A stretch of 64,000 bases of DNA from Myxococcota bacterium (GTDB lineage Bacteria; Myxococcota_A; Polyangia; Nannocystales; Nannocystaceae): NCBI GenBank assembly GCA_039028615.1, contig JBCCHT010000021.1:147821-211820 (forward strand). The letters are read 5' to 3'. Both the position numbers and the translations under genes were made by a program. Each line of letters starts with the position of its first letter. Position 1 is the first letter of the stretch. The notes under the pieces were generated by a model. That model saw only the letters and a list, made by a program, of their open reading frames with translations, did not search any database and was not told the origin of the DNA. This document shows, piece by piece, positions 1 to 56,380 of this stretch.

Positions 1-1245
1 GAGCTGTTCGAGCCGGATCCCGCCGCCGTCGACCAGGGGTACGTGCCTCTACGTAGTGTGGCGCCCGAAATCGGTGCTCGCGTCGGCTTCTTCCCGGGAC
101 GGGTCGTGGGGCTGGAGCTGGAGGGGTCTTTGATGCCCACTCGCACGACGACCCGACGGTCCGCGCTGGTATGGGCAGTACGGGGTAACGTGCTCTTGCA
201 GCTGCCCACGTACTCCCTCACGCCCTTCGCCGTCGTCGGTCCGTCGCTGCTCGGGGTTGCATCGGGCGAAGGCGCGGTGGGGCACGACCAGGACTTCGGC
301 GTGCATTTCGGCGTGGGGCTCAGGGCCCAGCTCAACCGCCACCTCGGACTGCGGCTCGACATTCGCGACACGCTCACCTCCCGGCGAGGCCTGGACGCTG
401 GCTTCGCCCATACCCCCGAGGTCTTGCTGAGTGTGTCGGTCTCCCTGGGGCGCTCGCCCAGCCTGACCCCGCTGCCGACGTCCGGGCGCACGCGAGACGA
501 TGTCGATGGTGACGGCGTGCCGAACGAGGTCGATGCCTGCCCTTCGGTGGGCGGCTACGAGCAGTATCGTGGGTGCCTGGACGACCCCCTCGGCGACCGT
601 GACGGTGACGGCGTCGTCGATGCGGAGGACTTGTGTGTCGATACCCCGGGCGAACCAGACATCGGCTGTCCGTACATCCACGAGGCCTATGACATGGACG
701 GGGACGGCATCGACAACGAGTCCGATCGTTGTCCCTCGATCGCGGGGCTATCCCAGTACCAAGGCTGCCCGGATACCGATGGCGACGGAATCCACGACCT
801 CGACGACGAGTGCGCCGATCAGAGCGAGAACTACAACGGCTTCGCCGATGACGATGGCTGCCCCGACCAGCGACCGTTCGTTCTTCCGATCAAGCCGCTC
901 TTCTTCGATGACGTCAGCTTCGAGCGAGGCCGACACCGCATCGGCGCCGAGTCGTACCCCGTGCTGGACGATGCCGTGGAGAAGCTCGAGTCGTTCACCG
1001 AGGTCCGGCTGGAGATCCGAGGACACACCGACTCTGCGGGGCGTGAGGAGGACAATCTGCGGATTAGCCTCGAGCGAGCACAGGCGGTGAAGGACTACCT
1101 GGTCGAGCACGGCATCGAGCCCGAGCGGCTGGAGGTTCGCGGTGTCGGGTCGACTCAGCCGATCGCGAGAAACGACACCGACAGAGGGCGTGCGGCCAAT
1201 CGGCGGGTGGAGCTGAGGATCGTCTCGGCGTCGGATCGTCGGTGA
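1..1245 (+). CDS. OmpA-family outer-membrane protein with thrombospondin type-3-like Ca-binding repeats (5'-truncated by window edge)
   Basis: Frame is open from base 1. Beta-barrel-like N-terminus, repeated DxDGDG..D.CP motifs, and a C-terminal OmpA domain (IRGHTDS...NLRISLERAQAVKDYL...NRRVE). Confidence 0.9.
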   Translation, partial: ELFEPDPAAVDQGYVPLRSVAPEIGARVGFFPGRVVGLELEGSLMPTRTTTRRSALVWAVRGNVLLQLPTYSLTPFAVVGPSLLGVASGEGAVGHDQDFGVHFGVGLRAQLNRHLGLRLDIRDTLTSRRGLDAGFAHTPEVLLSVSVSLGRSPSLTPLPTSGRTRDDVDGDGVPNEVDACPSVGGYEQYRGCLDDPLGDRDGDGVVDAEDLCVDTPGEPDIGCPYIHEAYDMDGDGIDNESDRCPSIAGLSQYQGCPDTDGDGIHDLDDECADQSENYNGFADDDGCPDQRPFVLPIKPLFFDDVSFERGRHRIGAESYPVLDDAVEKLESFTEVRLEIRGHTDSAGREEDNLRISLERAQAVKDYLVEHGIEPERLEVRGVGSTQPIARNDTDRGRAANRRVELRIVSASDRR

Positions 1246-1766
1246 GGCGGGCACTGCCTGATCCTCAATCTATCGCATGAACTCGGCACGAGCGTTCGTT
1301 GCAATTTGGGCCGCGGCGTCGAGCAACGGAGGGTGACGACGATGGCCCCTACACCTACGCCGTGACTCGGGGTTGGCATGAAGGCGCACCCCCGAGGCTC
1401 GCGGTGAAACGACCACTCGCCTCGAGGACGAACCGGATCACAGTTCTGCGTAGGACGTGCTGTTTCATGTCACGTTGAAATCTACTCACATGCTCGTCGC
1501 TACATTCGCTCGCTTCCGATCGTACGAGTGGTCGTTGGATCGGTCTCGGGGCGTCGCGACGAACGTGAGACCGGCTCGGAACACGGTGAGAGGACGCGGC
1601 TTCGAGCGAGGTGTCCCGATCGAGTTCTGGCGTTCGGCCGGGTGTTGCTTGGGCTATCATTGGGTGGCTTGGGTCGGAGCTTGGTAGCCGTCGTCGCGCG
1701 TGCGCGAGTCGGAGTCCGGCGGAGCATGGATGCTTGGTCGAAGTTCGAGGCAGGAGGCAAACAACG

Positions 1767-4700
1767 GTGAGATCGGAACAGACTCGACATGGATGTACCG
1801 TCGTCGCGGTGAGCGGCACGCATGGGGTGGCGCTCGCGATGGGGTGGCCGCAGGGACAGACGCAGGACCTGCTGGGGTTCGCAATCTCGCGTCGTGATGG
1901 CGGGGGGGAGCCGACTTGGTTACCGGTGGTCGTGCAGTTCGAGGGTCGGCCGATCGAGACGGGCAAGCTCTACCCGTCGAACGAGTCGCCGATTCAGTCG
2001 ATGGTGTGGAACGACTTCGGGGTCTCGGACGACAAGACCAGCCACGGCCTGCCCCCGGACACCGAATTCACCTATTCGGTCGCACCCGTGCGCGGGACCC
2101 CGGACCAGTTCCAGGTGTGCGAGGACCAAGCGGTCGCGGTCACCGTGCGCACCGAGCCCGAGTACGCCGAGAAGGGAGCCTCGGTGTTCTTCAACCGCGG
2201 GCTGTCCGATTCGCAGGAATACGAGCGCCTATTCGGCGAAGGCCACGTGCCCGATCCAAACAAGCCCGAGGACGCCGAAGCGATGGCCTGGCTCGCGCGG
2301 GGGCTGGATGTCGCCATCATCAAGTTCATCGAAGAGGCCATCGACGACGAGAGCCTGACCCTCGACGCGGCCGTGTATCACCTGGACCATCAGGGGGTGA
2401 TCGATGCGCTGGCCAAGCTCGGCAAGCGTTGTCGGGTGTCGATGGACTGGGGCAGCGAGGAGGAGCACGCCGATCCTCCCAATACGGGCCCCAACCAGCC
2501 GGCCTACGATCGGCTGACGAAGGCGGGGGTGACGGTGCATCAACGCCGGCACGTCGCCATCAGCCACAACAAGTACATGCTGCTCAAGGGAGCCGACGGC
2601 AAGGGCAAGGCGATCCTCACTGGTTCGACCAACTTTACCAACGGAGGCATCAGCACGCAGTCCAACCAGAGCGTGATCGTGCGCGACCCCGAGGTCGCGG
2701 CGGTGTACCTCGAGGACTTCGAGCGCGTGCTGCAGGACGACAACAAGGGGCTGCGCGAGTTCAACGCGCAAGGGGAGGTCATCAGCGACTCTCTCGAGGT
2801 CTACTTTTCGCCGCACAGCGCCAGCGACACCCCCGATCTCGACCGCTTCAAGGCACTCGCTCGAGACGCCGAGTCGAGCATGCTGTTTTTGACCTTCCGA
2901 ATGACCTCGCACGAAGTGCTCTCGGAGATCTTCAGCCGCGGTGACTCGCAGGACGACGACCTGCTGGTCTTCGGCGTGGCCGACCGCGTCTATAAAGGCA
3001 ACGACGGCAGCGGCGACCGCCTGATCTACGACGAGTCCCTGGCGGGCGACCCCCGCGTGGTCTCGGCCGCGGACCCTCTCGACGACCTCTCGGAGGAACC
3101 GGGCGAGGACGTCCTGTACGACGAGCTCAAGCGCGAGGGCTACGACCCGCTGGTCCATCACAAGATCCTGCTGGCGGACTGGGACAGCCCCGAGTGCACG
3201 GTGGTGACGGGCTCGGCGAACTACTCCAACAACTCCAGCAAGAACAACGACGAGAACTCGCTGGTGATCCGCGGAGACCAGCGGCTGGCACAGCAGTACT
3301 TCGTGGAGTTCGCTCGGCTCTATACCCACTGGCGTGGTCGCTGGCTGGAGGAGCGCAACTACAAGCACGAGCATCAGGCGCTGACGCTCGCCGCTGACTC
3401 GAGCTGGACGAAGACCTGGTACTCGGGCAGTCGCAACACCGAGCTGCTGAAGTTGGCGCTCGGGGCGGAGGCATTCGCGCGGACGATGGAGCCCACACCA
3501 GCGGAAAAGGTCGCGCGGGAGGCCGCTCGCAAGGCCGCGGCGCCTCGGATGGAGCACGTCATCGTGCTGATGCTCGAAAACCGCTCCTTCGATCACATGA
3601 TGGGCTTCCTGCCCGGGGTCGAGGGCGTGCTGGGCGACGACGGCAAGGTCGATCCGGCTCGCTACAACTACGCCGATCCGCTCGACTCGACCTCCGCCAA
3701 GTACACGGTGGGCCAGGCGGAGTACTTCGCGATCCCTGCCGACGATCACAAAGACGAATACGGCGGGCCCTCGCACTCCTACCCGGCGGCGACCGAGCAG
3801 ATCTTCGGCCAGAAGTATCAGCAGTCGTCTCCACCGGGGAGCGAGCCGGCGGTGAACAACGGCTTCATCAAGAGCTACATCAAGGAGCTGAAGTTCTCGC
3901 AGAAGGTCGATGACCCCAAGGCGAAGCATGTCCGGGTGGCGATCGATGCGTTCTCGCCGACGCAGATGCCATCCATCAGCACGCTGGCCGAGGAGTTCTG
4001 CGTGTGTGACCACTGGTACTCCGAGGTCCCCGGGCCCACGGAACCGAATCGGCTCTTCACCCATGCGGCGACCTCCGAGGGGCTGACCCACAACGTGTGG
4101 GACCACGCGATCCAGTCGCGGACCATCCAGGAGAACTTGGCCGCCAAGGGCCACTCCTGGCGGTTCTACTACCAAGATCTGAGCGACTCGAATCAGTTCC
4201 CTGCGCTCAAGCGGGAGGTGGACCAGGTCCGGCCGTTCGAGAAGCTCTACGAGGACCTCCGAAGTGGGGATCTGCCGGCGTACTCGTTTCTGTGCCCCCG
4301 GTACTCGGACACCGACACGGAGTTCGCCAACTCGCAGCACGCGCCCTACGACGTGCGCTACGGCGAGCACCTCATCGCGGACGTGTACGAGGCGGTTCGC
4401 CGTAGCCCCAAGTGGAAGAACATCCTGCTCATCGTCACCTACGACGAGCACGGCGGGTTCTATGACCACGTCTACCCGCCGCGCGATGGCGTCCACAACC
4501 CGGATGGCCTGACTTCACCGACGGCCTACGATGCCGAGCTGAACAAGTCCAACCCCGACAAGTACGGCTACCTGATGGGGGACGACTACAAGTTCACCTT
4601 CCAGCGGCTGGGATGTCGGGTTCCCGCGGTGCTCATCTCACCGTGGATCGCCAAGGGCACGGTCGACTCCACTCGCTATCAGCACACCTCGATCGCGGCC

Positions 4701-5222
4701 ACGCTCAAGGAGGTCTACGAGCTGCCCGAGTTCCTGACGCGACGGGATGCGCAGGCCAACACGTTCACATCCGTACTCGCTCGAGCGACGGAAGCCCGCG
4801 ACGACGCGCCGCTCACCGTGCCGCGGCCGCCGTTGCCGGGGCAGGGGTCGAACGAGGCCGCGCCCGCTCCCGGGACGAAGCCGCTGGGGGTGCTGCAGCG
4901 AGGGGTCTACGCGACGCTGACTCACCTGGACGGTCACCCCGACTCCGGCAAGCCACCGCGCGTGCCCAAGACCCAGGCCGAGGCATCGGCGTACATCAAG
5001 GAGCGCTACGACGCCCACAACGCATTCCACCACGCGCTCGCGAAGAACGGCCGCTTCGAGGTCTACCAGGACAAGGCCGGGGAGCATCGGTGGCGCCTGC
5101 GGGACGGCGCCGGGCAGATCATCGCGAGCTCGGGCGAGGGCATGAAGACCAAGGCCGAGGTCGACGCCGAGATCGAGACCATCCGCAACCTGGCGCCGTC
5201 GGCCGACCGCGCAGACGTTTGA
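1767..5222 (+). CDS. Fusion protein: phospholipase D-like (two HKD-type motifs) + phosphoesterase/phospholipase C domain + C-terminal DUF1508/YegP-like domain
   Basis: PLD motifs HNKYMLLK..TGSTNFT and HHKILLAD..TGSANYS; phosphoesterase motifs EHVIVLMLENRSFDH and VTYDEHGGFYDHV; C-terminal FEVYQDKAGEHRWRL..GQIIASSGEG. Start moved from 1611 to the in-frame GTG at 1767, which follows a GGAGG RBS. Confidence 0.85.
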   Translation: MRSEQTRHGCTVVAVSGTHGVALAMGWPQGQTQDLLGFAISRRDGGGEPTWLPVVVQFEGRPIETGKLYPSNESPIQSMVWNDFGVSDDKTSHGLPPDTEFTYSVAPVRGTPDQFQVCEDQAVAVTVRTEPEYAEKGASVFFNRGLSDSQEYERLFGEGHVPDPNKPEDAEAMAWLARGLDVAIIKFIEEAIDDESLTLDAAVYHLDHQGVIDALAKLGKRCRVSMDWGSEEEHADPPNTGPNQPAYDRLTKAGVTVHQRRHVAISHNKYMLLKGADGKGKAILTGSTNFTNGGISTQSNQSVIVRDPEVAAVYLEDFERVLQDDNKGLREFNAQGEVISDSLEVYFSPHSASDTPDLDRFKALARDAESSMLFLTFRMTSHEVLSEIFSRGDSQDDDLLVFGVADRVYKGNDGSGDRLIYDESLAGDPRVVSAADPLDDLSEEPGEDVLYDELKREGYDPLVHHKILLADWDSPECTVVTGSANYSNNSSKNNDENSLVIRGDQRLAQQYFVEFARLYTHWRGRWLEERNYKHEHQALTLAADSSWTKTWYSGSRNTELLKLALGAEAFARTMEPTPAEKVAREAARKAAAPRMEHVIVLMLENRSFDHMMGFLPGVEGVLGDDGKVDPARYNYADPLDSTSAKYTVGQAEYFAIPADDHKDEYGGPSHSYPAATEQIFGQKYQQSSPPGSEPAVNNGFIKSYIKELKFSQKVDDPKAKHVRVAIDAFSPTQMPSISTLAEEFCVCDHWYSEVPGPTEPNRLFTHAATSEGLTHNVWDHAIQSRTIQENLAAKGHSWRFYYQDLSDSNQFPALKREVDQVRPFEKLYEDLRSGDLPAYSFLCPRYSDTDTEFANSQHAPYDVRYGEHLIADVYEAVRRSPKWKNILLIVTYDEHGGFYDHVYPPRDGVHNPDGLTSPTAYDAELNKSNPDKYGYLMGDDYKFTFQRLGCRVPAVLISPWIAKGTVDSTRYQHTSIAATLKEVYELPEFLTRRDAQANTFTSVLARATEARDDAPLTVPRPPLPGQGSNEAAPAPGTKPLGVLQRGVYATLTHLDGHPDSGKPPRVPKTQAEASAYIKERYDAHNAFHHALAKNGRFEVYQDKAGEHRWRLRDGAGQIIASSGEGMKTKAEVDAEIETIRNLAPSADRADV

Positions 5223-5234
5223 GGAGCAGTTTTC

Positions 5235-8200
5235 ATGACCGATCAGAATCAACCTGTGACCTTCCTCGACGGCGGCGGGCTCGACATCTCGAGCCAACAT
5301 GCCCAGGACCTGTCTGGAGAACGCGGCGAGCAGCGCTTGCTGGACCGCTATCGGCTGATGCAGCGCGGGCTGGTCTATCCCGCGCCCTACGCCCGTTTCG
5401 TGAGCTACTGGACGGCCGAGGGCAAGTCGATCACGCGCGCGGACATCACCGCCGTGATGAAGCAAGTGCGTGACGAAATCCACGAGCGCTTTGGCTCCAC
5501 CAACACGTCGGCCATCGTCGGCGTGAATTTCGATCTGTACCGGCAGTGGTGCGAAGACGATGGCGGCAGCATCCCGGCCGGTATGAAGCTGGCGTTCCCG
5601 GAGGACGGCAGCGAGCGTTCTTCGGTGTTCGACCGCTCGCGCGGGGTCTTTCAGGACTCCGAGGCCAGCCTGTGGTTCCACATCAAGTCGGACGAGCAGG
5701 CCAACCTCGAGGGGGTGAACGAGGTGGTGTCCAAGGCCCTCGGGGACTTGGTGGGGCGCAGCGTGTACCAGGACTGCAACCAACGGCTGCGGCCGGGGAG
5801 CGGGGACGCGGGGCGGGTGCTCGGCAAGCGCTTCGCCGAGAACCTCAACAACCCCACCGACCCGGTGACCATCGCTCACCACACGCTGGTGGGGCACGAC
5901 GACATCGAGCACCTGGGGGCGTCCTACGCCCTCGCTCAGCGCTTCTATATCAACTGGGAGCGCATCCACCAGATGGCGGAGGAGCAGGTCGAGGACATCA
6001 TCGGCCGCAACTCGAACGACGAATTCCTGCCGAACCGAGACACGCGGAGCCACATCAAGTCCGCTCGACAGCAGGACGCGCAGGGCAACACCACGTTCGT
6101 GATGCGGCTCGGGCTGCCGTTCGGAGCTTCGCCCTACGCTTCACGCCCCGACCTCGCGCTGGCCGGCAACAACCGCGGGGACGAGGCGGGAATCTACTTC
6201 GCCGGGTTCGCCAAGCGAGTGGACGTGTTCGAGACGATCATGAGCGCACAGATCGGCGACACGCCCGGCTTCATGAACGACCGGTTGTTCAACAACCTGC
6301 GCTCCGATCTGGGCGGGTTCTTCTACATCCCCAACCGTCGCGACCTGGGCCTCGTGCCCGAGCCGTGGGCGAAGGAGTCGGAGCGAGACTGGACGCGCTT
6401 CCCGGGCATCGACTGGTCGCGGCTGTCCCGTCACTTCACCGACAAGTCACCCAACGGGTGGATGTACTACAACCACAAGAACTATCTGTACGAGATGGCC
6501 ACGATGCCGACGGAGCGGCGGGCACAGCTGAACCCGCCCTCCACGCGCATCTTGACCTTGCTCATGGACATGTTCGCCCGCTGGCAGGACGCCTGGTACT
6601 TCGCCAAGGGCCAAGACGACATGGGGTCGCTATACGACCACATCGCCAGCGACCCCGACTTTGGCCCGGAGAAGGCCAAGGAGGTGCATGGGCTGTCCAT
6701 CATGGAGCGCAAGGGCTGGGCCACGCGCATGCAGTGCCGGCTCTACGCGACGGATGCCTATGGCTATCGAGGGCGGCGGAAGGTCGATGGGGTCGATCGC
6801 CCGGGCGCCGATACCTACCGGATCCACCCCGAGGAGATCATCGTGGGGGCGCTGCCGGATCTGAGCCTGGGGCAGGGCCGCTACTGCATGAAGTACCTGC
6901 GCGAGGAGGAGCGTCAGCCGGCGTTCTTCCGCGGCCTGACCGAGGCCTCCGGCGTGGGCCACGTGCTGCCCGACCATCAGAAGCTGGTCGACCTCGGGCT
7001 CGGCAGGCTCTTGGCCGAGATCGACGCCAAGGCCGAGTCGGTGGCCGATGACGACAAGCCGTTCTACCGTGCGTGCCGTTTGTCGCTCGAGGGCGTGCAG
7101 GACCACCTCGAACGCTACGCCGCGCTCGCCGACTCGATGGCGGCCGCGTGTGCGCACGGGCAGGCGGCGGAGCGCAACAACCTCGAGCAGATCGCGGCTC
7201 GCTGTCGGGCCCTACGCACCGACCAGCCATCGAGCATGGTCGAGGCGGCGCAGCTCATCTTCACCTATCACACGTGTCTGCACCTCAACGGTGAGCCGGT
7301 CTCGGTCGGGCGTCTCGACCAGTACCTCGGGCGCTTTCACGACGCGGACATCGAGGCGGGGCGCCTCACTCCCGAGGGCGCGCAGGAGATCATCGACGCG
7401 CTGTGGGTCAAGCTCTCGGAGAAGATCCTGCAGAACCGGATCTTCATTCATGACCACCAGCCCTACGGAAACCTGGCCATGGGTGGCGGCTCGGGGCCGT
7501 ACCCGCAGGGGGCGTCGCTCGGGCAGTGGATCATGCAGGTGACGGTCGGCGGCTGGGTTGCCGACGAGGAGAAGGTACCCACGCCCGCGTACAACGAGGT
7601 CACCCGGCTGTGCATTCGCGCCTCGGGCCGCCTGCCGCTGACGGCCCCGTGTCTGTCGCTACGGGTCAATGCCCACACCCCCGCCGACCTGCTCGAGGAG
7701 GCCGCACGCGCGGTCCTCTCTGGTGGCGCGCACCCGATCCTGCTGCACGACGACAAGATCGCGGCCGGGCTCGCGCAGTCGGGCGACGGGATCGGCGAGG
7801 GCGACCCGAACAACCCGACCGCGTCTACCCCGGTCGCGGCCAAGGCCCAGGGGCGCTGGGACAGCCAGGTCAGCATCGCCAGCGCGCGTAACTTCGCCAG
7901 CGACGGCTGCTACGAGCCGCTGTTCACCGGGCAGACCTGGTTTGCGCTGGGGGGCTTTTCAACCCTCAACCCCCTGGAGTGCGCGCTCAACCAGGGCCGT
8001 TCCTACGCGTCCGCGGGGGAGACCTTCCTGCACGGGCAGAACCTCTCGTTCCATACCCCCCCGGCGGAGCAGATCGAGAGCTTCGAGCAGCTCCTGGAGC
8101 TTTACTTCACGCACTTCCGACTGCTGTGGGCCAAGACCTTCGACGGCCAGATATCCACCTTCGACGCTCTGGCCGATATCTGCCCGGCGCCGCTGCTGTC

Positions 8201-9176
8201 GGTGCTGACGGACGACTGCCTGGCGAAGGGACAGGACATCTACGGGGGAGGGGCACGCTACAACGTCTACGCGCCGTGCTGGATCGGGCTCAGCACCACC
8301 ATCAACAGCCTGTGGAACATCAAGCGCATGGTGTTCGACGAGGACTCGATGGTCACTTCTCTGGCGGAGCTGCTCGAGTGCCTGATGTGCGACTGGGGCA
8401 ACAAGATGGTCGAGCCCATGGTCAGCTCGTTGATCGGGCCCAACCGCATCGCGGCCAAGGCGGTTCGGTTCCAGCGCCTGCGGGAGATTGCCTTGTCTAT
8501 GCCGCGCTACGGCGAGGGCAACCCCGAGGTGGACGAACTCGGTGATCGCATCGTGCACGAGGTCGCGAGGTTGACCGTCGACGTGCTGCGGAACCCGGCC
8601 GAGTCCACGGCCAAGAAGATGCTGGACTTCGCCAACCGGCACGGCACGCCGGAGCAGCCCTTCGGAGGCTTCCAGATCCACCCGGGCACGGGGACCTTCG
8701 AGAACTTCTCCGCGTTTGGTGTGGGCAGCGGGGCGTCGGCGGACGGACGGCGTCTCAACGCTCCCATCGCCAGCGACATGAGTGCGGCCCCGGCACGTTC
8801 CGATGCCCCGGCCGACCCCGCGTACGTGCCCTTCGATGCCGCTCTGGCCAGCAGCGAAGGCGATGGAGCCAGCGCGATGTGGGACGGAGCGCCCACCGAC
8901 TTCAACATCGACGAGACCTTTCCCGTGCAGACCCTCGCCGACATGTTCGGTCAGTTCGCCCGCGGCAAGGGCAGCAACATCCTGACGGTGACCGTCGCGT
9001 CGCGGGAGACCTTCACCGAGGCACCCAGCCACCCGGAGTCCTACGACCTACTCCGCGTCCGCATGGGAGGCTGGTCCGAGTACTTCACGTCGATGTTCCC
9101 CGTCAGTCAGGTCCAGCACCAGCGGCGGCCGGTCATGACTCCACCCCACGACGCCGCCGACACCAAGGAGGGATGA
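5235..9176 (+). CDS. DyP-type haem peroxidase domain fused to a PFL-like glycyl-radical enzyme domain
   Basis: First ~370 aa show DyP features (LWFHIKSD, RFAENLNNP, SHIK, MRLGLPFG, GIYFAGF, DRLF..GGFFYIP). The remainder shows GRE features (EEIIVG, SVGRLDQYL, QVTVGG, GCYEP, GASADGR, YDLLRVRMGGWSEYF). GAGGAG RBS upstream. Confidence 0.88.
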   Translation: MTDQNQPVTFLDGGGLDISSQHAQDLSGERGEQRLLDRYRLMQRGLVYPAPYARFVSYWTAEGKSITRADITAVMKQVRDEIHERFGSTNTSAIVGVNFDLYRQWCEDDGGSIPAGMKLAFPEDGSERSSVFDRSRGVFQDSEASLWFHIKSDEQANLEGVNEVVSKALGDLVGRSVYQDCNQRLRPGSGDAGRVLGKRFAENLNNPTDPVTIAHHTLVGHDDIEHLGASYALAQRFYINWERIHQMAEEQVEDIIGRNSNDEFLPNRDTRSHIKSARQQDAQGNTTFVMRLGLPFGASPYASRPDLALAGNNRGDEAGIYFAGFAKRVDVFETIMSAQIGDTPGFMNDRLFNNLRSDLGGFFYIPNRRDLGLVPEPWAKESERDWTRFPGIDWSRLSRHFTDKSPNGWMYYNHKNYLYEMATMPTERRAQLNPPSTRILTLLMDMFARWQDAWYFAKGQDDMGSLYDHIASDPDFGPEKAKEVHGLSIMERKGWATRMQCRLYATDAYGYRGRRKVDGVDRPGADTYRIHPEEIIVGALPDLSLGQGRYCMKYLREEERQPAFFRGLTEASGVGHVLPDHQKLVDLGLGRLLAEIDAKAESVADDDKPFYRACRLSLEGVQDHLERYAALADSMAAACAHGQAAERNNLEQIAARCRALRTDQPSSMVEAAQLIFTYHTCLHLNGEPVSVGRLDQYLGRFHDADIEAGRLTPEGAQEIIDALWVKLSEKILQNRIFIHDHQPYGNLAMGGGSGPYPQGASLGQWIMQVTVGGWVADEEKVPTPAYNEVTRLCIRASGRLPLTAPCLSLRVNAHTPADLLEEAARAVLSGGAHPILLHDDKIAAGLAQSGDGIGEGDPNNPTASTPVAAKAQGRWDSQVSIASARNFASDGCYEPLFTGQTWFALGGFSTLNPLECALNQGRSYASAGETFLHGQNLSFHTPPAEQIESFEQLLELYFTHFRLLWAKTFDGQISTFDALADICPAPLLSVLTDDCLAKGQDIYGGGARYNVYAPCWIGLSTTINSLWNIKRMVFDEDSMVTSLAELLECLMCDWGNKMVEPMVSSLIGPNRIAAKAVRFQRLREIALSMPRYGEGNPEVDELGDRIVHEVARLTVDVLRNPAESTAKKMLDFANRHGTPEQPFGGFQIHPGTGTFENFSAFGVGSGASADGRRLNAPIASDMSAAPARSDAPADPAYVPFDAALASSEGDGASAMWDGAPTDFNIDETFPVQTLADMFGQFARGKGSNILTVTVASRETFTEAPSHPESYDLLRVRMGGWSEYFTSMFPVSQVQHQRRPVMTPPHDAADTKEG

Positions 9177-9180
9177 GGCC

Positions 9181-11109
9181 ATGGAACGCGCATTCGATCG
9201 AATCCTCGTGATCATGTTCGAAAACCAGTATCGCGAGTACGTGATGGCCAACCCCTATATGCGTGGGCTCGCGCGGCAGGGGATCGACATGGCCAACTTT
9301 CACGGCGTGATGCATCCGTCGCAGACCAACTACATCGCCTCGGTGTCGGGCGAGCTGTGCAACGTCACCGACGACGACTCGCCGGGCCTGCTGCCGCAGC
9401 GCACCATCGTGGACCTCATCGAGGAGGCTCCCGGTGACCTACAGTGGAAGGCGTACATGGATGGCTATCGGCCGGCCAAGACGCCCTGGACCCCGGAGCT
9501 GGTGCCACAGGACGACTTCCCCTACGTCATCAAGCACAACCCGTTTTCATCGTACGGCAACATCGTGCGCAACGAGTTGCGGTGGAAGCGAATCGTGGAC
9601 CAGACGCAGTTCTTCCGCGACGTGCTCAACGGCGAGCTGCCCCACTACGCCTGGTTTACGCCAGACATGTGGAACGACGGGCACTACACCGACGGGACCC
9701 AGAGCGAGCCGGCGGAGCGCGCCCCGGCCCTGGTCGACCAGCTGGCGCGGTGGCTCGAGGAGTTCTTCGGGGCGCTCGACTTTCCTGGGCCCGACTCGAG
9801 GCTGCCCAAGGGCACCCTGGTCGTGGTGACCTTCGACGAGTCCGATTTCCTGAAGAAGTTCGATGCGGGCAAGAAGTACACCTACGACGGTCCGAACCAG
9901 GTCTATACCGTGCTGCTGGGCGACATGATCGAGCCCGGCGTGCAGGACGGGGCCTACAACCACTACAACTTGCTGCGCACGATCGAGCTGAACTTCGGGC
10001 TCGGCGACCTGGGCAAGAACGACGCGGGGGCGACTCCGCTGCGGTTTTTGTGGGGGCAGACCTTCGACTGGGAGCCGCCCGAGGATACGCCGATCCACAC
10101 CCATGGCCACGTCGCGAGCGCGGGCCTGGGGGATGTGCTGCACGTGGTCGTCCGTGATGAAGACGGCGGCTTGCGGCACACGACCTTCAACGGCCAGGCC
10201 TGGGGGGTGCCCCGACCGATCGGAGCTCGTTCGACCGGTCCGCTGTGCATGGCCGCGAGGGGCGACCAGCTGGTGCTGATGTTCGCGGGCGACAAGGGGC
10301 AGCTGTCGTCGTTGACCTACGACCTTCAGCACGGCTGGTCCTCCGAGCCCGAGGCCGTGGCCGTGGGGGAGAGCCGACACATCGCGTTGTGTGCCTTCGG
10401 AGGCGGCAGCGAGCTGATGGCCGTGTGGGTCGACGGGGAGGCGATCAAGTCGCGCCGCTACGACGGCTCGGGTTGGGCGCCCGACACGACCGACACCGGG
10501 CACACCACCCAAGGGGCGCTGGCCATCGGTGCGATCGGCCCTTCGCTGTTCTTGGTGTTCCAGAGCGAGGATGGGGGCCTGAGCGCGGTTACCTACAACA
10601 CCGCGGACTTCAACACGACGACCGTCGCCACCTCCAAGTACTCGGGACCGTGGGATGACACCGTGGCCAACCAGTGGTCGCCGAGCGCATTCGCGGTGGG
10701 GCGTTTCGGCGCCGCAGCGTTCGAAGGGACGCCGAAGGAACTCGAGCCCGTCACCGTGCCGGTCGAGTCCGGGGCCCCGGTGGTCATGGCCGCCCACGAC
10801 GGCACATTGCACCTCGCCCACGCGGGGGTGGCCAACCGTCAGCTGCTCACCGAGCGCTTCTCGGTGCCCGGTGTTCTCACGCCCAAGCTCCGCGTCTCGT
10901 ACAAGGCCACCGAGGACAAGACCACCAGCAACGGCTACGGCACGCTGGCCGAGGCCGGGTGGACGAGCTCGGAGCCCATCGACTTCAGCTGGGTCGGTGA
11001 AGGCGGGGCCGCCAGCATGGCGACCGTGGGCGACGAGCTGGTGCTGCTCGCACAGCCCGAGGCGGGCGGCCCGTTGCAGATCCTCGTGGCGGGCTACGAG
11101 CAAGAGTGA
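9181..11109 (+). CDS. Phosphoesterase (acid phosphatase/PLC family) with C-terminal beta-propeller-like repeat domain
   Basis: FDRILVIMFENQ, HPSQTNYIA, KHNPF, PDMWNDGH, VVTFDES, YNHYNLLRTIE; the C-terminal half has Trp/Gly-rich beta repeats. Starts 4 nt after the previous stop. Confidence 0.85.
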   Translation: MERAFDRILVIMFENQYREYVMANPYMRGLARQGIDMANFHGVMHPSQTNYIASVSGELCNVTDDDSPGLLPQRTIVDLIEEAPGDLQWKAYMDGYRPAKTPWTPELVPQDDFPYVIKHNPFSSYGNIVRNELRWKRIVDQTQFFRDVLNGELPHYAWFTPDMWNDGHYTDGTQSEPAERAPALVDQLARWLEEFFGALDFPGPDSRLPKGTLVVVTFDESDFLKKFDAGKKYTYDGPNQVYTVLLGDMIEPGVQDGAYNHYNLLRTIELNFGLGDLGKNDAGATPLRFLWGQTFDWEPPEDTPIHTHGHVASAGLGDVLHVVVRDEDGGLRHTTFNGQAWGVPRPIGARSTGPLCMAARGDQLVLMFAGDKGQLSSLTYDLQHGWSSEPEAVAVGESRHIALCAFGGGSELMAVWVDGEAIKSRRYDGSGWAPDTTDTGHTTQGALAIGAIGPSLFLVFQSEDGGLSAVTYNTADFNTTTVATSKYSGPWDDTVANQWSPSAFAVGRFGAAAFEGTPKELEPVTVPVESGAPVVMAAHDGTLHLAHAGVANRQLLTERFSVPGVLTPKLRVSYKATEDKTTSNGYGTLAEAGWTSSEPIDFSWVGEGGAASMATVGDELVLLAQPEAGGPLQILVAGYEQE

Positions 11110-11119
11110 CGGGCGGTGA

Positions 11120-11155
11120 CCGAAGCCGGGCGGACCGAGTCATGCCCGGCTTCGG
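11120..11155. terminator. GC-rich hairpin between convergent genes (possible bidirectional terminator)
   Basis: Perfect 12-bp inverted repeat CCGAAGCCGGGC / GCCCGGCTTCGG with a 12-nt loop; no U-tract. Confidence 0.55.
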
Positions 11156-11170
11156 CGGTTCATCGGCCGT

Positions 11171-14089
11171 TCAGCGAGCCGTGTCGCACGCCTCGAGCCA
11201 CTGCTCCACGTCTGCGATCTCATTGGACGCCCCAGGGCCGTATTCGACGTAGGCTTTGTGGGCGCGTCGGGCGAGGGCGCATGCCTCGTTCGAGGGGGAA
11301 GCCGTGCCGGTCATGACGCGGGCCTGAACGAACTGCACGCTGGCGAGAATGTCTGGGTGACCCTCGATCGCATCGGCGATTGCTGCGGCGTGGTCGGCGT
11401 GGTGCTTTGCCCGATCGAAGTCGCGCTGCTCGACCGCGACATCGGCGAGGCCCACCAGGGTCCGCGCCGTGGCGGGGTGCTCGGGACCCAGCGCCCATTG
11501 CTGGACATCAAACGCCCGCTGCAGGTGCTCTCGTGCGTCCTCTAGGCGCCCCATCTCGATGAGCAGGAGGCCGAGGTAGCAGTCGTCGTAGGCGACGAAG
11601 GGATGATTGGGGCCGAGGTGAGCCAGCTCGATCCGCCGGGCACTTCGGTAGGCCTGCTCGGCATCTTCGAATTTGTGCTGGGACATGAGGATATGGCCGA
11701 GGTTGGCGAGGATCGGAGCGAGCGTATGGTGCTCTCGCCCGTTTGCCCGCTCGACAAAGCGGAGCTTCTGGCGGGTGTGTGCCTCGGCCTCGGCATAGCG
11801 TCCCTGGAGCGCCTCGAGGTTGGCGAGGCGCCCCACGAGCCGCTCGGGAGCGAGCTCGGGGTCTGCAGAGAAACCCTCGGCCATCTCGATCGCCCGGCCA
11901 TAGGTGATCCGGGCGTCCTCGAGCTTGCTCTGGCAGAGCAGCACGTCGCCTAGCATGAGCTGGACCTTCGAGGCATCCGGTGACGTTGGGGACGGCAGCT
12001 GCCCGTGGATGTCTTCGGCCTCACGGAGCAGCCGTTCCGCGCCGACACAGTTCCCCTTCTGCTTGTCGATGCGGGCGAGCAAGAACAACGCGTTGGCGAC
12101 GGCGGGGTGATGAGGACCCAACGAATCCCGGCGGGCATCGAGGGCCCACGTGGCGTGTCCTGCGGCGGCCTCGAATCGGCCCTGCTCCATCAGCGTGGCG
12201 GCCAGGCCGTGGTGGGTGTTGCCGACGAGCTGGTGATGAGGCCCCAGTCGCGATGCTCGCTCGGTGAGCGCACGACGATGGAAGCTCTCCGCCTCGCGGT
12301 AGCGACCGTTGTCGTCGAGGATGGTGCCCAAGGTCTGATGGACCATGGCCTGCGCGAGCACGTCGTCACGACGTCGGGCTAGGGCCATCGCGCTGGAGGC
12401 CCACGTGATGCCGGCTTGGTGCTGGGACGCGACGAAGCCGAGCTCATGGGCGAGACGGATCGCACTCGAGAATGCCAGCCGGTCGTATCCGTGCTCGAGG
12501 GCGACGGGATAGGCACGCTCGAGGTCACCGCGAGCCCCGTCGAAGTCACCGAGGTCGGATCGCAGGGCGCCTCGTTGCACCCACGTCTCCACTTGCAGCT
12601 CGAGGTCCCCCGAGGCTCGTGCTCGCTCGGCGAGCGGTTCCAATCGTTCGAGCGCGTCGGCAAATCGCCCCACGTGCTGAAGCGCCTCCACGACGGCCAG
12701 CGAGTGTCGCACCTGAGTCGCGAGGACCGACGGCGGCTCACTCGAGCGCTCGTCCAGGTTTTCGCAGCGAGTGAGCGGCGGCAGGCCTTCGACCAGGGTG
12801 ACGGCCTCATCGACGATGCGATCGTCTGCATCAGCCAGGAGATCGACGGTCGCGGCGATGTGGGCCCGAAGGTCGCCGAGGCACCTCAGGGTGGGGTCAC
12901 TGACGGGCGCTTCGGCGAGCTGACCCTCGCAGGCCCCTCGGTAGCGGCGGGCCCACGCGCCCACGTATTGGCCGAGATCGGACTCGACCCGCTCCCACGT
13001 CTCGGAGGCGTAGGGACGGCTGGTGGCGAGCAGAGACTGCTGCACCTCGAGCTGTGTCTCCTCGCTCCACACCCCCTGCCGCAGGGCTCCCTCGTCGGGG
13101 CACGCCCCCCGCCCTTGGGCTCCGAACAGGGCACCCGCCGTCGCCATCGAGCCGAGCATGACGACCAGTGCGGCTCGTCGACGTCGGGAGCGTCGATGGC
13201 TGGCGTCGATCTCGAGCAGCAAGACCTCGAGCGAGGGCCATCGCGCGGCAGGATCTTCTCGGAGCCCTCGCCACAGCGCCCGGCGTAGCCACCGGGGCGC
13301 GGGGTGTCCCCACGGAGGCTCGGTGGGGGTGTTGCGATCGTCGTCGCCGAAGGGGAGCTTGCCGAACAGCGCCTCGTACAGGGATACGCAGAAGCTGAAC
13401 TGGTCGCTGCGATGGTCGGCGACCTGTCCGTGTCGCAGCTCGGGGGCGATGTAGCCTCGGGTCCCGACCACCACGCGGGTGGAGATGGTGGTCTCCGTCA
13501 GCGGGGAGCGGCCAGGATCGGCCTGGGCGAGGCCGAAGTCCAGGACTCGAACGCGCCCGTACTCGTCGCGGATGCAGTTGCTGGGCTTGAAGTCGCGATG
13601 CACCAGCCCGGCCGAGTGCGCGGCGGCGAGACCACGGCCCGCCTGCAGGTAGGCGTCGAGGCACGCGGACCAGTGGCGGCCCGGGCGTTGCCACTCGGCG
13701 AGCGTGGAGCCGGTGACCTGCTCCATCACGATGAACGGGGTCCCGTCGATCTCGCCCACTTCGTGGATCTGGACGACGTTGGGGTGAGACAGCTTGGCGA
13801 GCGCCTGCGCCTCGTGCATCAAGCGGCGGTCGTCGGCGTTTCGCAGGCGCTCTCGCAGGAGCTTGACCGCCACCGTTCGATCGAGCTTGGGGTCGTAGGC
13901 CTCGTAGACCTTGCCCATACCCCCTCGTCCGAGCTCGCGCTGGATGACGAAGCGGTCGATCTGCGTGCGGACGGGGCCTCCGTGGGACGGGAACAAGCGG
14001 GCTTTGATCGCGGAGCGCTGTCGCGTGCCGACCGGGTCGTCGATGGACACGCCGGCCAAGCACCGCTCGATGTCCTCGTCATGAAGCAT
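11171..14089 (-). CDS. Membrane Ser/Thr protein kinase with TPR repeats
   Basis: [38 protein letters not shown]; a TM segment; C-terminal TPR repeats. Confidence 0.92.
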
Positions 14090-21288: not shown

Positions 21289-22677
21289 TCAGTCCTCGGG
21301 GTATGAGGTCCAGCCGGCAGTCCAGGGCTCGGTGCCCGGGGCGAAGGCGCCGGCGTAGCGCGCTCGTTCGTCGAAGCCGTCGAACAAGGCCGTCGGAGGA
21401 TCGATGCTGGCTTCGACGACCGCATTGCCCTGGGGAACCCAACCCGGGCTCGCCAGGTTGAAGGGGGAGGTCAGCGAAGGGTTGACGCCCAGCGTGAGGC
21501 CGGACAGGCCACGGAAATGAGCGTCTTCGTCGAAGCCTTCGTCATCGTCGGCGTCGGCGTCGAACTCCTCGGTGGGAAGCGGGAACCAGTGGTCACCACC
21601 GGACCCGACCGCGAACATCAGCGCTCCATCGATCGTCAGCTGGCCGTCTTCGAGGCGAGCCACCGTCTCGGCGTCTTGGATGTCGATCGCTTCGATGGGG
21701 TGACCGGTGACGAGCACGTTGTTGAGCGAGCCGCCGGTTCCGTCCTTGAGGGTCATGGCGCGCTGGCTGCCCTGGCCGCCGGAGCCGAGCAGGGTCACGT
21801 TCCACAGCTCGGGCATCGCGATCGGCATGGCTCCCGGCTCTCCGCTGCTCGCCTCGAACCCGTTGTCGCCATCGAGGTCCTGCTGAATGGCGACGAACTG
21901 AGCGGAGCCGCTCCAGCCGAGGTCCCAGTCCATCGAGTCGTCTTGGGCCCGGGTGATGACCACGTGTCGGAGGTCGACGGTTCCGCCGAACAGCTCCACG
22001 CCATCGTCGAGGCCGAAGTGCACCTGCACGTGGTCGACGAGCGTGCCCGTGCCGCAACCGCCGAGCGTGAGGCCGTTGAGTTCGTTGTCCTGCTCGAGCG
22101 GGAACCCGGCGAACTCGATGCGGGTGTACTCGATGACGCCGCAGGAGTGCGTGGGGTCGTTGCCGCCGAATCCGGCTCGGCTGGCGTCGCCCACCCCTTC
22201 GAGGGCCGAGCCGGGTGCGTTGATCGGGGCCGAGCCCAGCAGGGCCACGCCGCCCCAGTCGCCCGGGCTGCGCTCGCCGACCGGACGGGCACTGGTAAAC
22301 ACCACTGGCTCGGTCTCCGTGCCTCGTGAGCGCAGCTGGGCTCCCGACTGGGCCACCAGCGCCGAGCCTTCCTCACCCAGGATGCGCGTACCCGAGCGAA
22401 TGGTCAGCGTGGCGCCGGGCTCGACGTAGATGGTCTTCTCCAGGCGATAGGTCTGGTCCGAAGCCCACACGGTGTCTTCGGTGATGTTCTCGGCAATGTC
22501 GACGATTGCATCCTCGGCGGAGGTGCAAATCTGGGCAATGCACAGGTGCCCCGGATCGAGACAATGAGCGTCGACCGTACACTCTGCGAAATCGAGCATC
22601 GTCGTACATGCACTGTTGTTGAGCATGATTGCGATCGATGGGGGAACCAGGAAGGAGGGGGTCATCCGCGTTCGCAT
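21289..22677 (-). CDS. Putative surface lipoprotein with beta-helix-like domain (GDWGG..LLG.APIN family)
   Basis: Possible lipobox NSAC; VEPGATLTIRSGT, GDWGGVALLGSAPIN, YTRIEFAG, NELNGLTLGG, DDGVELFGG, WTAGWT. Start uncertain (22677 vs 22749). Confidence 0.7.
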   Translation of the reverse strand: MRTRMTPSFLVPPSIAIMLNNSACTTMLDFAECTVDAHCLDPGHLCIAQICTSAEDAIVDIAENITEDTVWASDQTYRLEKTIYVEPGATLTIRSGTRILGEEGSALVAQSGAQLRSRGTETEPVVFTSARPVGERSPGDWGGVALLGSAPINAPGSALEGVGDASRAGFGGNDPTHSCGVIEYTRIEFAGFPLEQDNELNGLTLGGCGTGTLVDHVQVHFGLDDGVELFGGTVDLRHVVITRAQDDSMDWDLGWSGSAQFVAIQQDLDGDNGFEASSGEPGAMPIAMPELWNVTLLGSGGQGSQRAMTLKDGTGGSLNNVLVTGHPIEAIDIQDAETVARLEDGQLTIDGALMFAVGSGGDHWFPLPTEEFDADADDDEGFDEDAHFRGLSGLTLGVNPSLTSPFNLASPGWVPQGNAVVEASIDPPTALFDGFDERARYAGAFAPGTEPWTAGWTSYPED

Positions 22678-22742
22678 GACGTTCGACAGGTTGCACGAAC
22701 GAGTGTCGATGACTAGTCCAAGTGCATAGTCGTCGTCGTTTT

Positions 22743-22758
22743 GTGACATTCACGTGAT
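22743..22758 (-). promoter_or_regulatory. Pho-box-like direct repeat
   Basis: Minus strand reads ATCACgtgaatGTCACaaaa: two (G/A)TCAC half-sites 11 bp apart in a divergent intergenic region. Confidence 0.35.
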
Positions 22759-22871
22759 GTGGCCAAGAGCGGGAGTGCGGGGTCGTTACCGTCCCGTTCC
22801 CGGAACTCCGTTGAATGTCGTTAGTCAGTGCGCTAGGGGAATGATCGTCGTTTGTTCGAAAGCAGGGACGA

Positions 22872-24404
22872 GTGATGCGAGATCCCATCATCGAGACTCT
22901 CCGAGAAAACCCGGTGGCGTCGAGTCACGAGCTGGTGCGGCAGCTCAGGCCGGACGCGCTGGGGTCTCACGCGCTGGTCCGTAGGCGGGGAAGCGGCCGC
23001 TTGGCTACGCTGAGGGCTCAGATCGTGTCCGATCAGGCGTGGCGGGACCGGCAGCCTCACCTGGCCCGGCTCGCCGAGGTTCGTCACAAAAAGATCTCGA
23101 GCCTGCTCGAATTCGGCCGCTACGACGATATCGCCTATACGATTCACGACTATGTCGACGGCCGCCGGTTGGCGGAGATCCTCGCAGAGCGTGGTCAATT
23201 GTCGTTGTCTGAATTTGTGCCAATCGTGTCACAAATATCGATGGGAGTCGCTGATGCCCACCTTCGTGGACTCGTGGTGGGCGGTGTTCGGCCTGAGAAC
23301 GTGACCCTCTTCGAGCACGACGGACGAGCTCTCGTCGTGAAACTGCGCGACTTCGGGCTCTCGGCGTTGCCGGGCACGGATGTGGCGATCCGCGGGGTGA
23401 CCGACGAACCCTCGGATTTCTGGGCTCCCGAGGCCGATCGTCTGGCCGACCCGAGCTCCGATGTCTTCGCGCTGGCCGCCCTGTGTGTACGAATGCTCGA
23501 TGGTGCGCTTCCGACCTTCGACTCGGCGGCAGACCGTTCGGCCCTGCTGCGGGCCCGCCTCGAACCGTTGAAGCGGGTCAACGCGAGCCTGCCCGACGCG
23601 TTCATCGAGCTGCTCCGTCGATCGCTCGACCCGGATCCGAGCCTGCGGCCGGCCGATGCCAACGCGCTGTTCGAAGAACTCATCGACGCAGTGCCGATGT
23701 CGGCGTTTCGCCTGCCGCGCGTCGGCCAGGATTCACCCCGAGACCTGTTTTCCAGCCCTCCCAGCGCCAGCATGAGCGCGATGACGCTGCTGGCGGGACG
23801 CTGGGGCGACGAGCCGGAGGAGGAGCCTCCGTCACCGAGCCCGCGGCCCTTGTCTGCCCCGCTGCCGTCGCCCAGCCCTCGACCACGGCGGCGAGGGTGG
23901 ATCGCAGCCGTCGCCGCGTTGGTGGTGGTGGCCACCGGAACGACGCTGGGGTTGGCGGCAGGCTCGTCGGCCCAGGAACGCGAGACGCAGTCGATGGAGC
24001 CCGCTCCGGTCGCGGTCGGTCACGCTCCGGTCGAGGTCCAACGGGCGCCCGAGCGCTCGGCACCTGCCGCGGTGCCCATCGTGGAGGCGCCGACGAGCGT
24101 GAGCCCTCCTCCCGTCGTCGAGCCGCCCCCGAGGGCCGAGCCCGCGGCTCAAAGCGTCGCGCTGCCCACCTCTGAAGTCGATGCCCCCCAAGCCGAACCC
24201 AGGCTTCCATCGTCGACGCGACGACGAAGTCGCGACCGGCGGGTAGTCGAGCCATTGCCTCGAGACGAACAACCCGAAGCTCCGCGGGCGGTCCCCGCGA
24301 GGAGTCGCTCGGCTGCACTCCTCGGGCGAGACTCCGCTGGCGGCATCGAGCCGTCTGCGCCGGACGACGGGGACCCGCTGCTGTCTCGCAGTTCGCACAA
24401 TTGA
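22872..24404 (+). CDS. Degenerate (pseudo)kinase domain protein with TM segment and Pro-rich tail
   Basis: DFG and APE retained; catalytic loop reads VVGGVRPENV instead of HRDLKPxN; no Gly-rich loop or VAIK lysine; TM WIAAVAALVVVA. Confidence 0.7.
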   Translation: MMRDPIIETLRENPVASSHELVRQLRPDALGSHALVRRRGSGRLATLRAQIVSDQAWRDRQPHLARLAEVRHKKISSLLEFGRYDDIAYTIHDYVDGRRLAEILAERGQLSLSEFVPIVSQISMGVADAHLRGLVVGGVRPENVTLFEHDGRALVVKLRDFGLSALPGTDVAIRGVTDEPSDFWAPEADRLADPSSDVFALAALCVRMLDGALPTFDSAADRSALLRARLEPLKRVNASLPDAFIELLRRSLDPDPSLRPADANALFEELIDAVPMSAFRLPRVGQDSPRDLFSSPPSASMSAMTLLAGRWGDEPEEEPPSPSPRPLSAPLPSPSPRPRRRGWIAAVAALVVVATGTTLGLAAGSSAQERETQSMEPAPVAVGHAPVEVQRAPERSAPAAVPIVEAPTSVSPPPVVEPPPRAEPAAQSVALPTSEVDAPQAEPRLPSSTRRRSRDRRVVEPLPRDEQPEAPRAVPARSRSAALLGRDSAGGIEPSAPDDGDPLLSRSSHN

Positions 24405-25281: not shown

Positions 25282-25348
25282 CCGAGGCCGACACCGTCGG
25301 AGTTCGCCATGGGTTTTGTGATGCTCGTGCCTTCGGACGACACTCGTG

Positions 25349-25362
25349 ACACATCGATGTGT
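25349..25362. promoter_or_regulatory. Perfect 14-bp palindrome upstream of phoX (candidate operator)
   Basis: ACACATCGATGTGT equals its own reverse complement; about 130 nt upstream of ATG 25493. Confidence 0.35.
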
Positions 25363-25492
25363 AGAGCGTCGTTTTCATGGCTCCGAAATGGGCTCATGTT
25401 GTGGCGTCGTCGTGATGGGAGTGTGGCATCGCCTCCCTAGACTCCCGGCCGTTGCGCAGGACCGAACCCGCGCATTCGGGAGCAATCGACAC

Positions 25493-52684: not shown

Positions 52685-52688
<4 letters not shown>
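50805..52688 (-). CDS. recD: Exodeoxyribonuclease V alpha subunit
   Basis: ISGGPGTGKT, APTGKAAARL, VDEASM, QLASVEAG, TVHKSQGSEF. Confidence 0.95.

Positions 52689-56376: not shown

Positions 56377-56380
<4 letters not shown>

Follow-up and report, generated by a model that had tools for sequence, protein, structure and literature searches.

Proteins that join an N-terminal B-type DyP peroxidase to a C-terminal PFL-like glycyl radical enzyme (GRE) have been described from fungi and bacteria as 'DyP B-PFL' fusions (PMC5041501). They have carried the label hypothetical since at least 2016, and the passages of that account devoted to the fusion state that its meaning 'remains elusive'. Here, we analyzed a gene of the same build, g2, which lies between two hydrolase genes, g1 and g3, at positions 1767-11109 of a 64,000-nucleotide stretch of contig JBCCHT010000021.1 from a Myxococcota bacterium; this whole stretch is called the window below. 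The gene trio likely marks an undescribed route for the breakdown of nucleic-acid-type rather than membrane-lipid phosphoesters. The sections of PMC5041501 on DyP-PFL proteins report a putative fungal activase, in contrast to g2, for which the search was negative, and they are silent on phosphoesterase or nuclease neighbors such as those of the g2 locus. A literature search on DyP/GRE fusions returned only this paper, and a term search of a 2026 GRE review (PMC13450708) gave no occurrence of 'peroxidase' or 'DyP'. The DyP-GRE fusion is known yet uncharacterized, and its conserved partnership with phosphoesterases and nucleases was not found in the literature searched.

The prevailing view of GREs is that they are strict anaerobic enzymes that need a radical-SAM activase. 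DyP-GREs are widespread, with at least 50% identity across phyla, and their carriers are aerobes. The known GRE dehydratases are stand-alone, strictly anaerobic enzymes with a radical-SAM activase and often with a microcompartment; g2, in contrast, is fused to a heme peroxidase. With the diol dehydratases and C-O lyases (propanediol dehydratase 5i2a, glycerol dehydratase 1r8w, YbiW, and PflD), it shares the radical Gly, the GCxE loop, and the active-site His (His166 in propanediol dehydratase, His164 in glycerol dehydratase). The two hydrolases also have described relatives. Compared with the PF04185 phosphoesterases (NPC4, PlcH/PlcN, and AcpA), g1 matches the whole profile and differs in having no secretion signal and in its fusion to phospholipase D (PLD) and DUF1508 domains, whereas in g3 the profile match is partial and a lectin-like propeller follows it. 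The PLD-superfamily nucleases Nuc, NucT, and Zucchini are nearest to the g1 PLD profile, and the nuclease role of the bacterial proteins is predicted from sequence. Of the lysosomal nucleic-acid toolkit (DNase II, PLD3/PLD4, RNase T2, and acid phosphatase; PMC5449587, PMC8497607, PMC11470960, and PMC12684396), DNase II, PLD3, and RNase T2 have homologues among the partner genes of DyP-GRE; the bacterial ones have no signal peptide and stand beside a radical enzyme. PMC5449587 places DNase II among the PLD-superfamily nucleases. The operon and its relatives provide the first concrete handle on the substrate of DyP-GRE: the recurrent partners cleave phosphodiesters and phosphomonoesters, mostly of nucleic-acid type.

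Domains and catalytic residues of the three proteins

All coordinates of g1, g2, g3, and their domains refer to the plus strand. In g2 (5235..9176, 1313 aa), the DyP domain spans residues 45-369 (5367..6341) and scores 105.6 bits against TIGR01413 (cut-off, 100.5); Pfam Dyp_perox_C gives 47.6 bits, which places the domain in the DyP family. The GRE domain spans residues 553-1285 (6891..9089), with 334.6 bits to the PFL-like profile and a Pfam Gly_radical match that, at 20.6 bits, lies below its cut-off of 22.2. At least 120 homologues were listed, all of 1284-1354 aa with both domains and 50-76% identity, and the named sources included Myxococcota, Bacteroidota, Gamma- and Betaproteobacteria, Cyanobacteria, Chloroflexota, and Actinomycetota. 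His576, Cys892, Glu894, Gly1278, and Gly1279 do not vary among 15 diverse homologues; of these residues, His576, Cys892, Glu894, and Gly1279 align with His166, Cys438, Glu440, and the radical Gly of propanediol dehydratase 5i2a, respectively. The radical motif RVRMGGWSEYF aligns with VRVAGYSALF of 5i2a and carries the RVxG[FWY] signature; R1274, R1276, G1278, G1279, and W1280 are invariant in the 15 sequences. The Cys loop DGCYEP (C892 and E894), also invariant, aligns with GCVEP of 5i2a and contains the CXE motif as defined in section 5.6.1 of the GRE review (PMC13450708). Across the DyP-GREs, the motifs GVGH, GCxE, and RVxGGW are conserved.

Passages of the same review describe the CXE Glu together with His164 of glycerol dehydratase as acting in C1-OH deprotonation and leaving-hydroxyl protonation, and assign YbiW and PflD to the C-O lyases that act on sugar phosphates. 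Among solved structures, 5i2a (2e-41) was nearest to the g2 GRE domain, ahead of YbiW, PflD, and glycerol dehydratase (E values of 2e-41 to 2e-33 over these four) and then CutC. Scores stayed below the cut-offs of the TIGR01774 subfamily (226.6 bits; cut-off, 678.2) and of the CutC equivalog TIGR04394 (116.6 bits; cut-off, 1050). Judged by its sequence, the GRE is of the eliminase/dehydratase type, and the GCxE Cys loop and the diol-dehydratase residues bear out what an earlier note on this DNA had said of it. Conversion of choline to trimethylamine by g2 is unlikely because its CutC score falls far below the cut-off and a His occupies the proton-donor position of diol dehydratases. Glycerol or another diol is a possible substrate.

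Canonical DyPs carry an Asp in the distal GXXDG motif, along with a distal Arg and a proximal His. At the corresponding position (residues 199-206 of g2), each of the 15 aligned DyP-GREs reads RF[AS]ENLNN, and Glu202 does not vary; the same is true of H273 and R291, as compared by eye without a reference alignment. No GRE radical-SAM activating enzyme was found among the window genes. In the host genome (96.7% complete), the best scores against the two activase models, TIGR02494 and TIGR02493, were 32.3 bits (cut-off, 174) and 53.8 bits (cut-off, 232), respectively, and TIGR02494 exceeded its cut-off in none of five other complete DyP-GRE genomes. Searches with these models did not find a CutD activase either in the window or in the host genome.

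The g1 protein (1767..5222, 1151 aa from a GTG start) combines a beta-sandwich, two PLDc_2 stretches, a full PF04185 phosphoesterase, and DUF1508. Its N-terminal beta-sandwich (residues 1-142; 1767..2192) is common to a stand-alone PLD family, termed c18 here. At E < 1e-30, the profile of this family yields 160 representative clusters, most of which are single proteins of ~555 aa that stand alone. The two-lobed PLD domain (2193..3431) has two HxK motifs, H267/K269 and H464/K466, neither of which varies across an alignment of 40 family members. The presence of two HxK(x)4D-type motifs on one chain, coinciding with two PLDc_2 stretches, assigns it to the PLD superfamily, and a structure model of the region gave a two-lobed PLD fold with a pLDDT of 89.1. 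Among solved structures, the c18 family profile was nearest to Nuc (7e-17), Zucchini/MitoPLD (2e-11), and NucT (3e-10), with a phospholipase at 0.0035. The earlier note had offered a nuclease role of the PLD domain as its second choice, which fits better than the lipid route it preferred. The PF04185 domain (3549..4727) scores 257 bits over profile positions 1-356, the full length, and its ENRSFD, TEPNR, and DEHGGFYDH motifs align with plant NPC4. Against the phosphocholine-specific phospholipase C (PC-PLC) equivalog TIGR03396 and the Burkholderia-type acid phosphatase model TIGR03397, g1 reached 141.8 bits (cut-off, 580.25) and 97 bits (cut-off, 362.75), respectively. The C-terminal domain (5070..5216) belongs to DUF1508/UPF0339.

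The g3 protein (9181..11109, 642 aa) begins with a divergent PF04185-type phosphoesterase domain (residues 1-295; 9181..10065) that has ~110 invariant columns in 15 sequences. It scores 61 bits over profile positions 109-355 only, and its altered motifs, ENQYRE, SQTNY, and DESD, are invariant inside its own family. The remainder (residues 296-642 and the stop codon; 10066..11109) forms a beta-propeller of ~350 aa with no Pfam family. A structure model of g3 reached a pLDDT of 78.9 overall and >90 in the propeller. Fold matches of the propeller were fucose-binding lectins, led by AOL (5eo8; E 1.2e-12, TM 0.68 on the target) and followed by AFL, AAL, and PLL. As modeled, the propeller resembles sugar-binding lectins. 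Inspection by eye shows no signal-peptide-like N-terminus in any of the three proteins, in agreement with the earlier note, which had set them apart from most hydrolases of the window; a PhoD-like protein of the window (61332-62960), in contrast, has a twin-arginine/lipobox-like N-terminus by eye.

Recurrence of the gene neighborhood

Contigs of one genome per species gave 168 confirmed matches, from which 64 DyP-GRE loci were kept; genes in these loci were called from GC3-weighted open reading frames (ORFs) and tblastn. A nuclease or phosphoesterase lies within two genes of DyP-GRE in 21 of the 64 loci, and no neighbor is universal among them. The c18 PLD of g1 type occurs in four loci from four phyla (Chloroflexota, Longimicrobium, Solirubrobacteraceae, and a Flavobacteriia metagenome-assembled genome), g3 stands directly upstream of DyP-GRE in two, both from Reyranella, a PLD3-like gene is present in three, and full-length PF04185 in two (Pedobacter). 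A 5'-nucleotidase with Endonuclease_NS and/or S1/P1 was found in four loci and trypsin-nuclease fusions in two, and the remaining linked loci hold RNase T2, XendoU, metallophosphoesterases, or alkaline-phosphatase-superfamily genes. Nuclease or phosphoesterase clusters (Pfam E 1e-8 or better) made up 19 of 171 clusters near DyP-GRE (within two genes) and 4 of 133 far from it (rank 4 or more in the same loci; drawn at random from 290), an odds ratio of 4.0 (Fisher p = 0.008) for clusters that are dereplicated yet not phylogenetically independent.

A stronger test of linkage than this near/far comparison is a metagenome scan seeded with g3, which gave 53 loci. DyP-GRE follows g3 directly on the same strand, with gaps of 55-360 nt, in 10 of the 21 loci with a readable downstream flank (9 of 20 when the identical L089 and L090 are counted once) and stands directly upstream of it in 2 of 49. 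Among 17 loci with both flanks readable, nine have DyP-GRE on either side of g3. A full-length PF04185 gene precedes g3 in 5 of the 49 loci. Members of the g3 family and DyP-GRE adjoin far more often than chance. On a FastTree tree of DyP-GREs (66 rows, read without the artefactually long branches of L009 and L067, which are probably frame errors in extraction), the linked state changes at least nine times, g3 adjacency at least five times, and c18 adjacency at least five times; the association has therefore been gained or kept many times. The link between phosphoesterases and DyP-GRE is real and recurrent, not chance adjacency. Conserved synteny, which the earlier note had named as a check on its reading, holds for g3, PLD-superfamily, and PF04185 genes in several phyla, and the 21 linked loci show that DyP-GRE homologues do have phosphoesterase or PLD neighbors.

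The partners and their order vary from locus to locus. L071 and L073 (GC 0.47) carry a fusion of full PF04185 with DNase II, then g3 and DyP-GRE. L100 and L093 carry DNase II, g3, and DyP-GRE, after which a PLD3-like gene is seen in L100; DNase II adjoins g3 in four loci. In L097, L089/L090, and L067, the order is g3, DyP-GRE, PLD3-like gene, a 645-aa protein, and an MBL-fold protein. The window shares only g3 and DyP-GRE with this block and differs in having the c18-PLD, PF04185, and DUF1508 fusion and the order g1, g2, g3; the PLD3-like, 645-aa, and MBL queries had no tblastn match in it. L037 combines c18-PLD, DyP-GRE, and a PLD3-like gene. Seven distinct loci carry a homologue of PLD3/4-type exonucleases (2e-57 to PLD3) downstream of DyP-GRE, the DNase II partner genes match Pfam at 1e-79, and the RNase T2 partner is also a true homologue. 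Partner classes outside the window comprise DNase II, PLD3/4-like, RNase T2, XendoU, S1/P1, Endonuclease_NS, EEP, and 5'-nucleotidase. Because these partners are nucleases and nucleotidases and the g1 PLD profile is nearest to Nuc, Zucchini, and NucT, the common theme appears, as far as homology can tell, to be hydrolysis of phosphodiesters and phosphomonoesters with a nucleic-acid flavor rather than of phospholipid head groups specifically. Signal peptides are absent from the g1, g3, c18, PLD3-like, DNase II, and PF04185 partners but present in the 5'-nucleotidase, S1/P1, sulfatase-type, and HAD phosphatase neighbors (the nucleotidase and S1/P1 types come from Bacteroidota and Hahella).

Two features of these loci were seen in passing. 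The cassette of 645-aa and MBL genes occurs twice in L097 (4079-7134 and 17333-20742; 44% and 33% identity), and the MBL protein there has a weak Avs1a-like N-terminal match (41 bits). In three low-GC loci (L074 8775-9824, L076 at the same coordinates, and L099 7434-8483), the gene before g3 encodes a radical SAM protein of the PA0069 family (454 bits), a relative of Rv2578c and of the 'radical SAM mobile pair'; a second kind of radical enzyme thus stands beside g3, probably within one lineage.

A search of 40 relatives of the host (5 congeners, 19 from its family, and 16 from its class; completeness 71-100%) found DyP-GRE in none, g3 in three, and the g1 PLD module in one, which is why conservation was examined in distant genomes and metagenomes. 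In the congener G005 (94% complete), g1 is present with its four domains intact (1201 aa, 62-70% identity) and, 31 nt further on, is followed by g3 (638 aa, 83%/61% identity), at 7545-13098 of L130 (G005:C158:50000-69000) on the minus strand. The flanks of this pair are unrelated to those of the window.

Proposed reaction sequence and competing explanations

Our tentative reading, held at less than even confidence, is that the three genes form a horizontally mobile operon whose products degrade phosphodiesters in the cytoplasm and include a radical enzyme that cleaves a C-O bond after priming by peroxide. The PLD module of g1 would cut phosphodiester bonds, and its PF04185 module would strip the terminal phosphate. 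The g3 protein may act on a sugar-bearing phosphoester held by its propeller. Together, g1 and g3 would cut and dephosphorylate a cytoplasmic phosphodiester of a sugar or polyol, with nucleic acid as the most likely target. The hydrolases would then hand a freed vicinal diol or sugar to g2 for radical C-O cleavage or dehydration, with the radical installed by the heme domain and peroxide. Such priming is likely because no activase was found. Gene order, domain content, conserved catalytic residues, recurrent neighborhoods, and the negative activase search are direct observations, whereas the substrate class, the sequence of steps, peroxide priming, and the hand-over of a metabolite are predictions. 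If it holds, it would be a new way to a glycyl/thiyl radical and would open a new class of aerobic radical catabolism. We regard as unlikely the more specific case in which g2 is an activase-free GRE in an aerobic cytoplasm, receives its radical from the heme peroxidase and H2O2, and performs the last step of a nuclease/phosphatase pathway by opening or dehydrating a ribose/deoxyribose-type sugar or polyol from which PLD-type nucleases and PF04185 phosphatases have removed the phosphates. If true, the sugars of nucleic acids would be catabolized by a radical route without a described counterpart.

Several results weigh against the proposed module. No nuclease or phosphoesterase lies within two genes in 43 of the 64 genome loci, and DyP-GRE therefore does not need these partners; likewise, 8 of the 17 g3 loci with both flanks readable have no DyP-GRE. 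In G005, no DyP-GRE stands between g1 and g3, and a PFL-like domain was not detected in the genome. The g1-g3 pair is therefore mobile in its own right and works without the GRE; DyP-GRE is an optional third member, and the coupling is facultative. The near/far enrichment comes from clusters that are not independent in phylogeny, and the activase search is that of two models. The best solved relative of the g1 PF04185 domain is the plant nonspecific phospholipase C NPC4 (8hav, 1.8e-66), because of which a lipid substrate is possible for g1. A fold search with the g1 PLD model returned PLD4, vaccinia F13, PLD, PLD3, and PPK1, all at ~1e-13, and so did not set the exonucleases PLD4 and PLD3 apart from F13 and phospholipase D. 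Finally, the mixed compartments of the partners fit co-regulation as well as a pathway.

A lipid substrate is what the earlier note had proposed. Its route would start from phospholipids inside the cell: PLD would release the head group (glycerol, choline, or ethanolamine), the phospholipase C (PLC)-type domain would release phospho-head groups, g3 would dephosphorylate these, and the GRE would eliminate water or amine. The NPC4 relationship agrees with this route, as do the fusion of PLD and PLC-type domains in one protein, an eliminase-type GRE that could dehydrate glycerol, and a patatin or lipase gene in a few flanks. The g1 PLD profile, however, groups with nucleases, and equivalent positions elsewhere hold DNase II, PLD3/4-like exonucleases, RNases, and nucleotidases, not lipid enzymes. 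The CutC and PC-PLC scores given above are far from their cut-offs, the operon has no head-group transporter, kinase, or aldehyde-handling gene, and an aldehyde dehydrogenase stands beside DyP-GRE in only one of the 64 loci (L060). The phosphoesterase link and the eliminase-type GRE thus survive from the earlier reading, while the nuclease partners and the CutC score give no specific support to phospholipid head groups as the substrate, and we consider the full route rather improbable. Chance or merely inherited adjacency without a functional link is hardly credible: it can draw on the unlinked majority of DyP-GRE loci and on neighborhood counts taken from related genomes, but the same families stand beside DyP-GRE in at least five phyla, in varied gene orders and fusions and with at least nine changes on the tree, and they are enriched near it over far from it.

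Somewhat unlikely, though to be taken seriously, is a peroxide-stress or conflict module in which the nuclease and phosphoesterase proteins serve as effectors or clear damaged nucleic acid, DyP-GRE senses or uses H2O2, and no metabolite is handed over. Such a role suits the sporadic distribution and mobile location of the genes in the relatives, where the flanks of the congener differ, and DNase II and PLD3-type exonucleases in the cytoplasm would pose a danger if they were not gated. Some flanks hold trypsin-nuclease fusions, TPR-S, caspase/CHAT, AAA-PDDEXK, helicase-PLD, a CBASS-like cyclase, or the Avs1a-like MBL protein, and stress genes adjoin DyP-GRE in Acinetobacter (ClpB and CinA), Taibaiella (KatG), and Pedobacter (Usp). 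The fungal DyP-PFL gene showed the strongest induction by H2O2 and peracetic acid in the expression results reported in a section of PMC5041501. Against this, PADLOC 2.0, which bears on the defense alternative in the earlier note, matched no known defense system; it has no family for g2 or g3 and gave weak generic PLD matches for g1 (DrmC at 1.6e-6 and 26 bits; DpdK, ZacB, and PbeA). The operon has no sensor NTPase, immunity gene, or antitoxin, the window flanks consist of an OmpA gene and kinases rather than a defense island, and the GRE retains a complete small-molecule eliminase active site. Co-regulated phosphate scavenging, with the hydrolases as phosphate-starvation genes and DyP-GRE merely in the same regulon, would agree with the mix of secreted and cytoplasmic partners and with the presence of PhoX and PhoD-like genes in this window. 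Enzymes of the partner classes are typical of phosphate starvation, and NPC4 is one in plants. This explanation is quite improbable: a Pho-box-like repeat within 600 nt upstream of DyP-GRE was found in none of 13 gammaproteobacterial loci (at least 11 of 14 matches to a consensus), the PhoX and PhoD genes are 14-50 kb away, and a radical enzyme translationally packed between two hydrolases is left unexplained.

Gene layout and flanks

The window has a GC content of 65% and belongs to contig C21 of a 12.3-Mb genome of 94 contigs. The three co-oriented ORFs have a GC3 of 0.87-0.90, similar to that of the other window genes. An intergenic spacer of 521 nt (1246..1766) follows an OmpA-family gene and leads to g1, whose ribosome-binding site AGGAGG (1752..1757, plus strand) lies 9 nt 5' of the GTG start. 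A longer g1 frame from 1611 is possible, and the N-termini of homologues agree with the start at 1767. The g2 start lies 12 nt after the g1 stop codon, with GGAG at 5223-5226, and g3 begins 4 nt after the g2 stop codon, with GGAGG at 9167-9171. In the 61-nt spacer between g3 and a convergent Ser/Thr kinase gene, a hairpin with a perfect 12-bp stem spans 11120..11155 (11120-11131/11144-11155). The spacer folds at -43.4 kcal/mol, has no T-tract, and was not called by the terminator scan; the hairpin is likely a bidirectional terminator. The layout given by the earlier note, with its co-oriented genes, short gaps, ribosome-binding sites, long upstream spacer, and closing hairpin, was confirmed from the sequence at each point checked.

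No sigma-70-like promoter was found in 1100-11400, and Rfam gave nothing credible in 1150-1850 (a single match at E 0.64). The upstream region 1246-1766 could not be aligned to the congener locus. Terminator-like sites in 1100-11400 number 8, with 4.2 ± 2.1 expected, and all but one are intragenic. One such stem with a T-run lies at 10024-10049, within the g3 coding region, in a region without excess of such sites. Rfam searches of eight related loci detected just two tRNAs and no riboswitch or leader. Both tRNA genes belong to a Chloroflexota locus (L007 1515-1703), where they stand 430-600 nt upstream of DyP-GRE, a typical insertion site for islands. Conflict genes occur in the far flanks of three loci (L021 ~22131-23892, L027 17785-23860, and L013 3-4292); they include a DncV-like cyclase with a prokaryotic E2 (CBASS-like), a Cap17-like gene, nSTAND, and a TcA-like toxin-complex ORF. 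Elsewhere in the window, a PhoX-type gene lies at 25346-27784 and the PhoD-type gene at 61332-62960. A complete RecBCD-type operon occupies 50805-59703 on the minus strand, with RecC-like, UvrD/PD-(D/E)XK RecB-like, and RecD-like genes.

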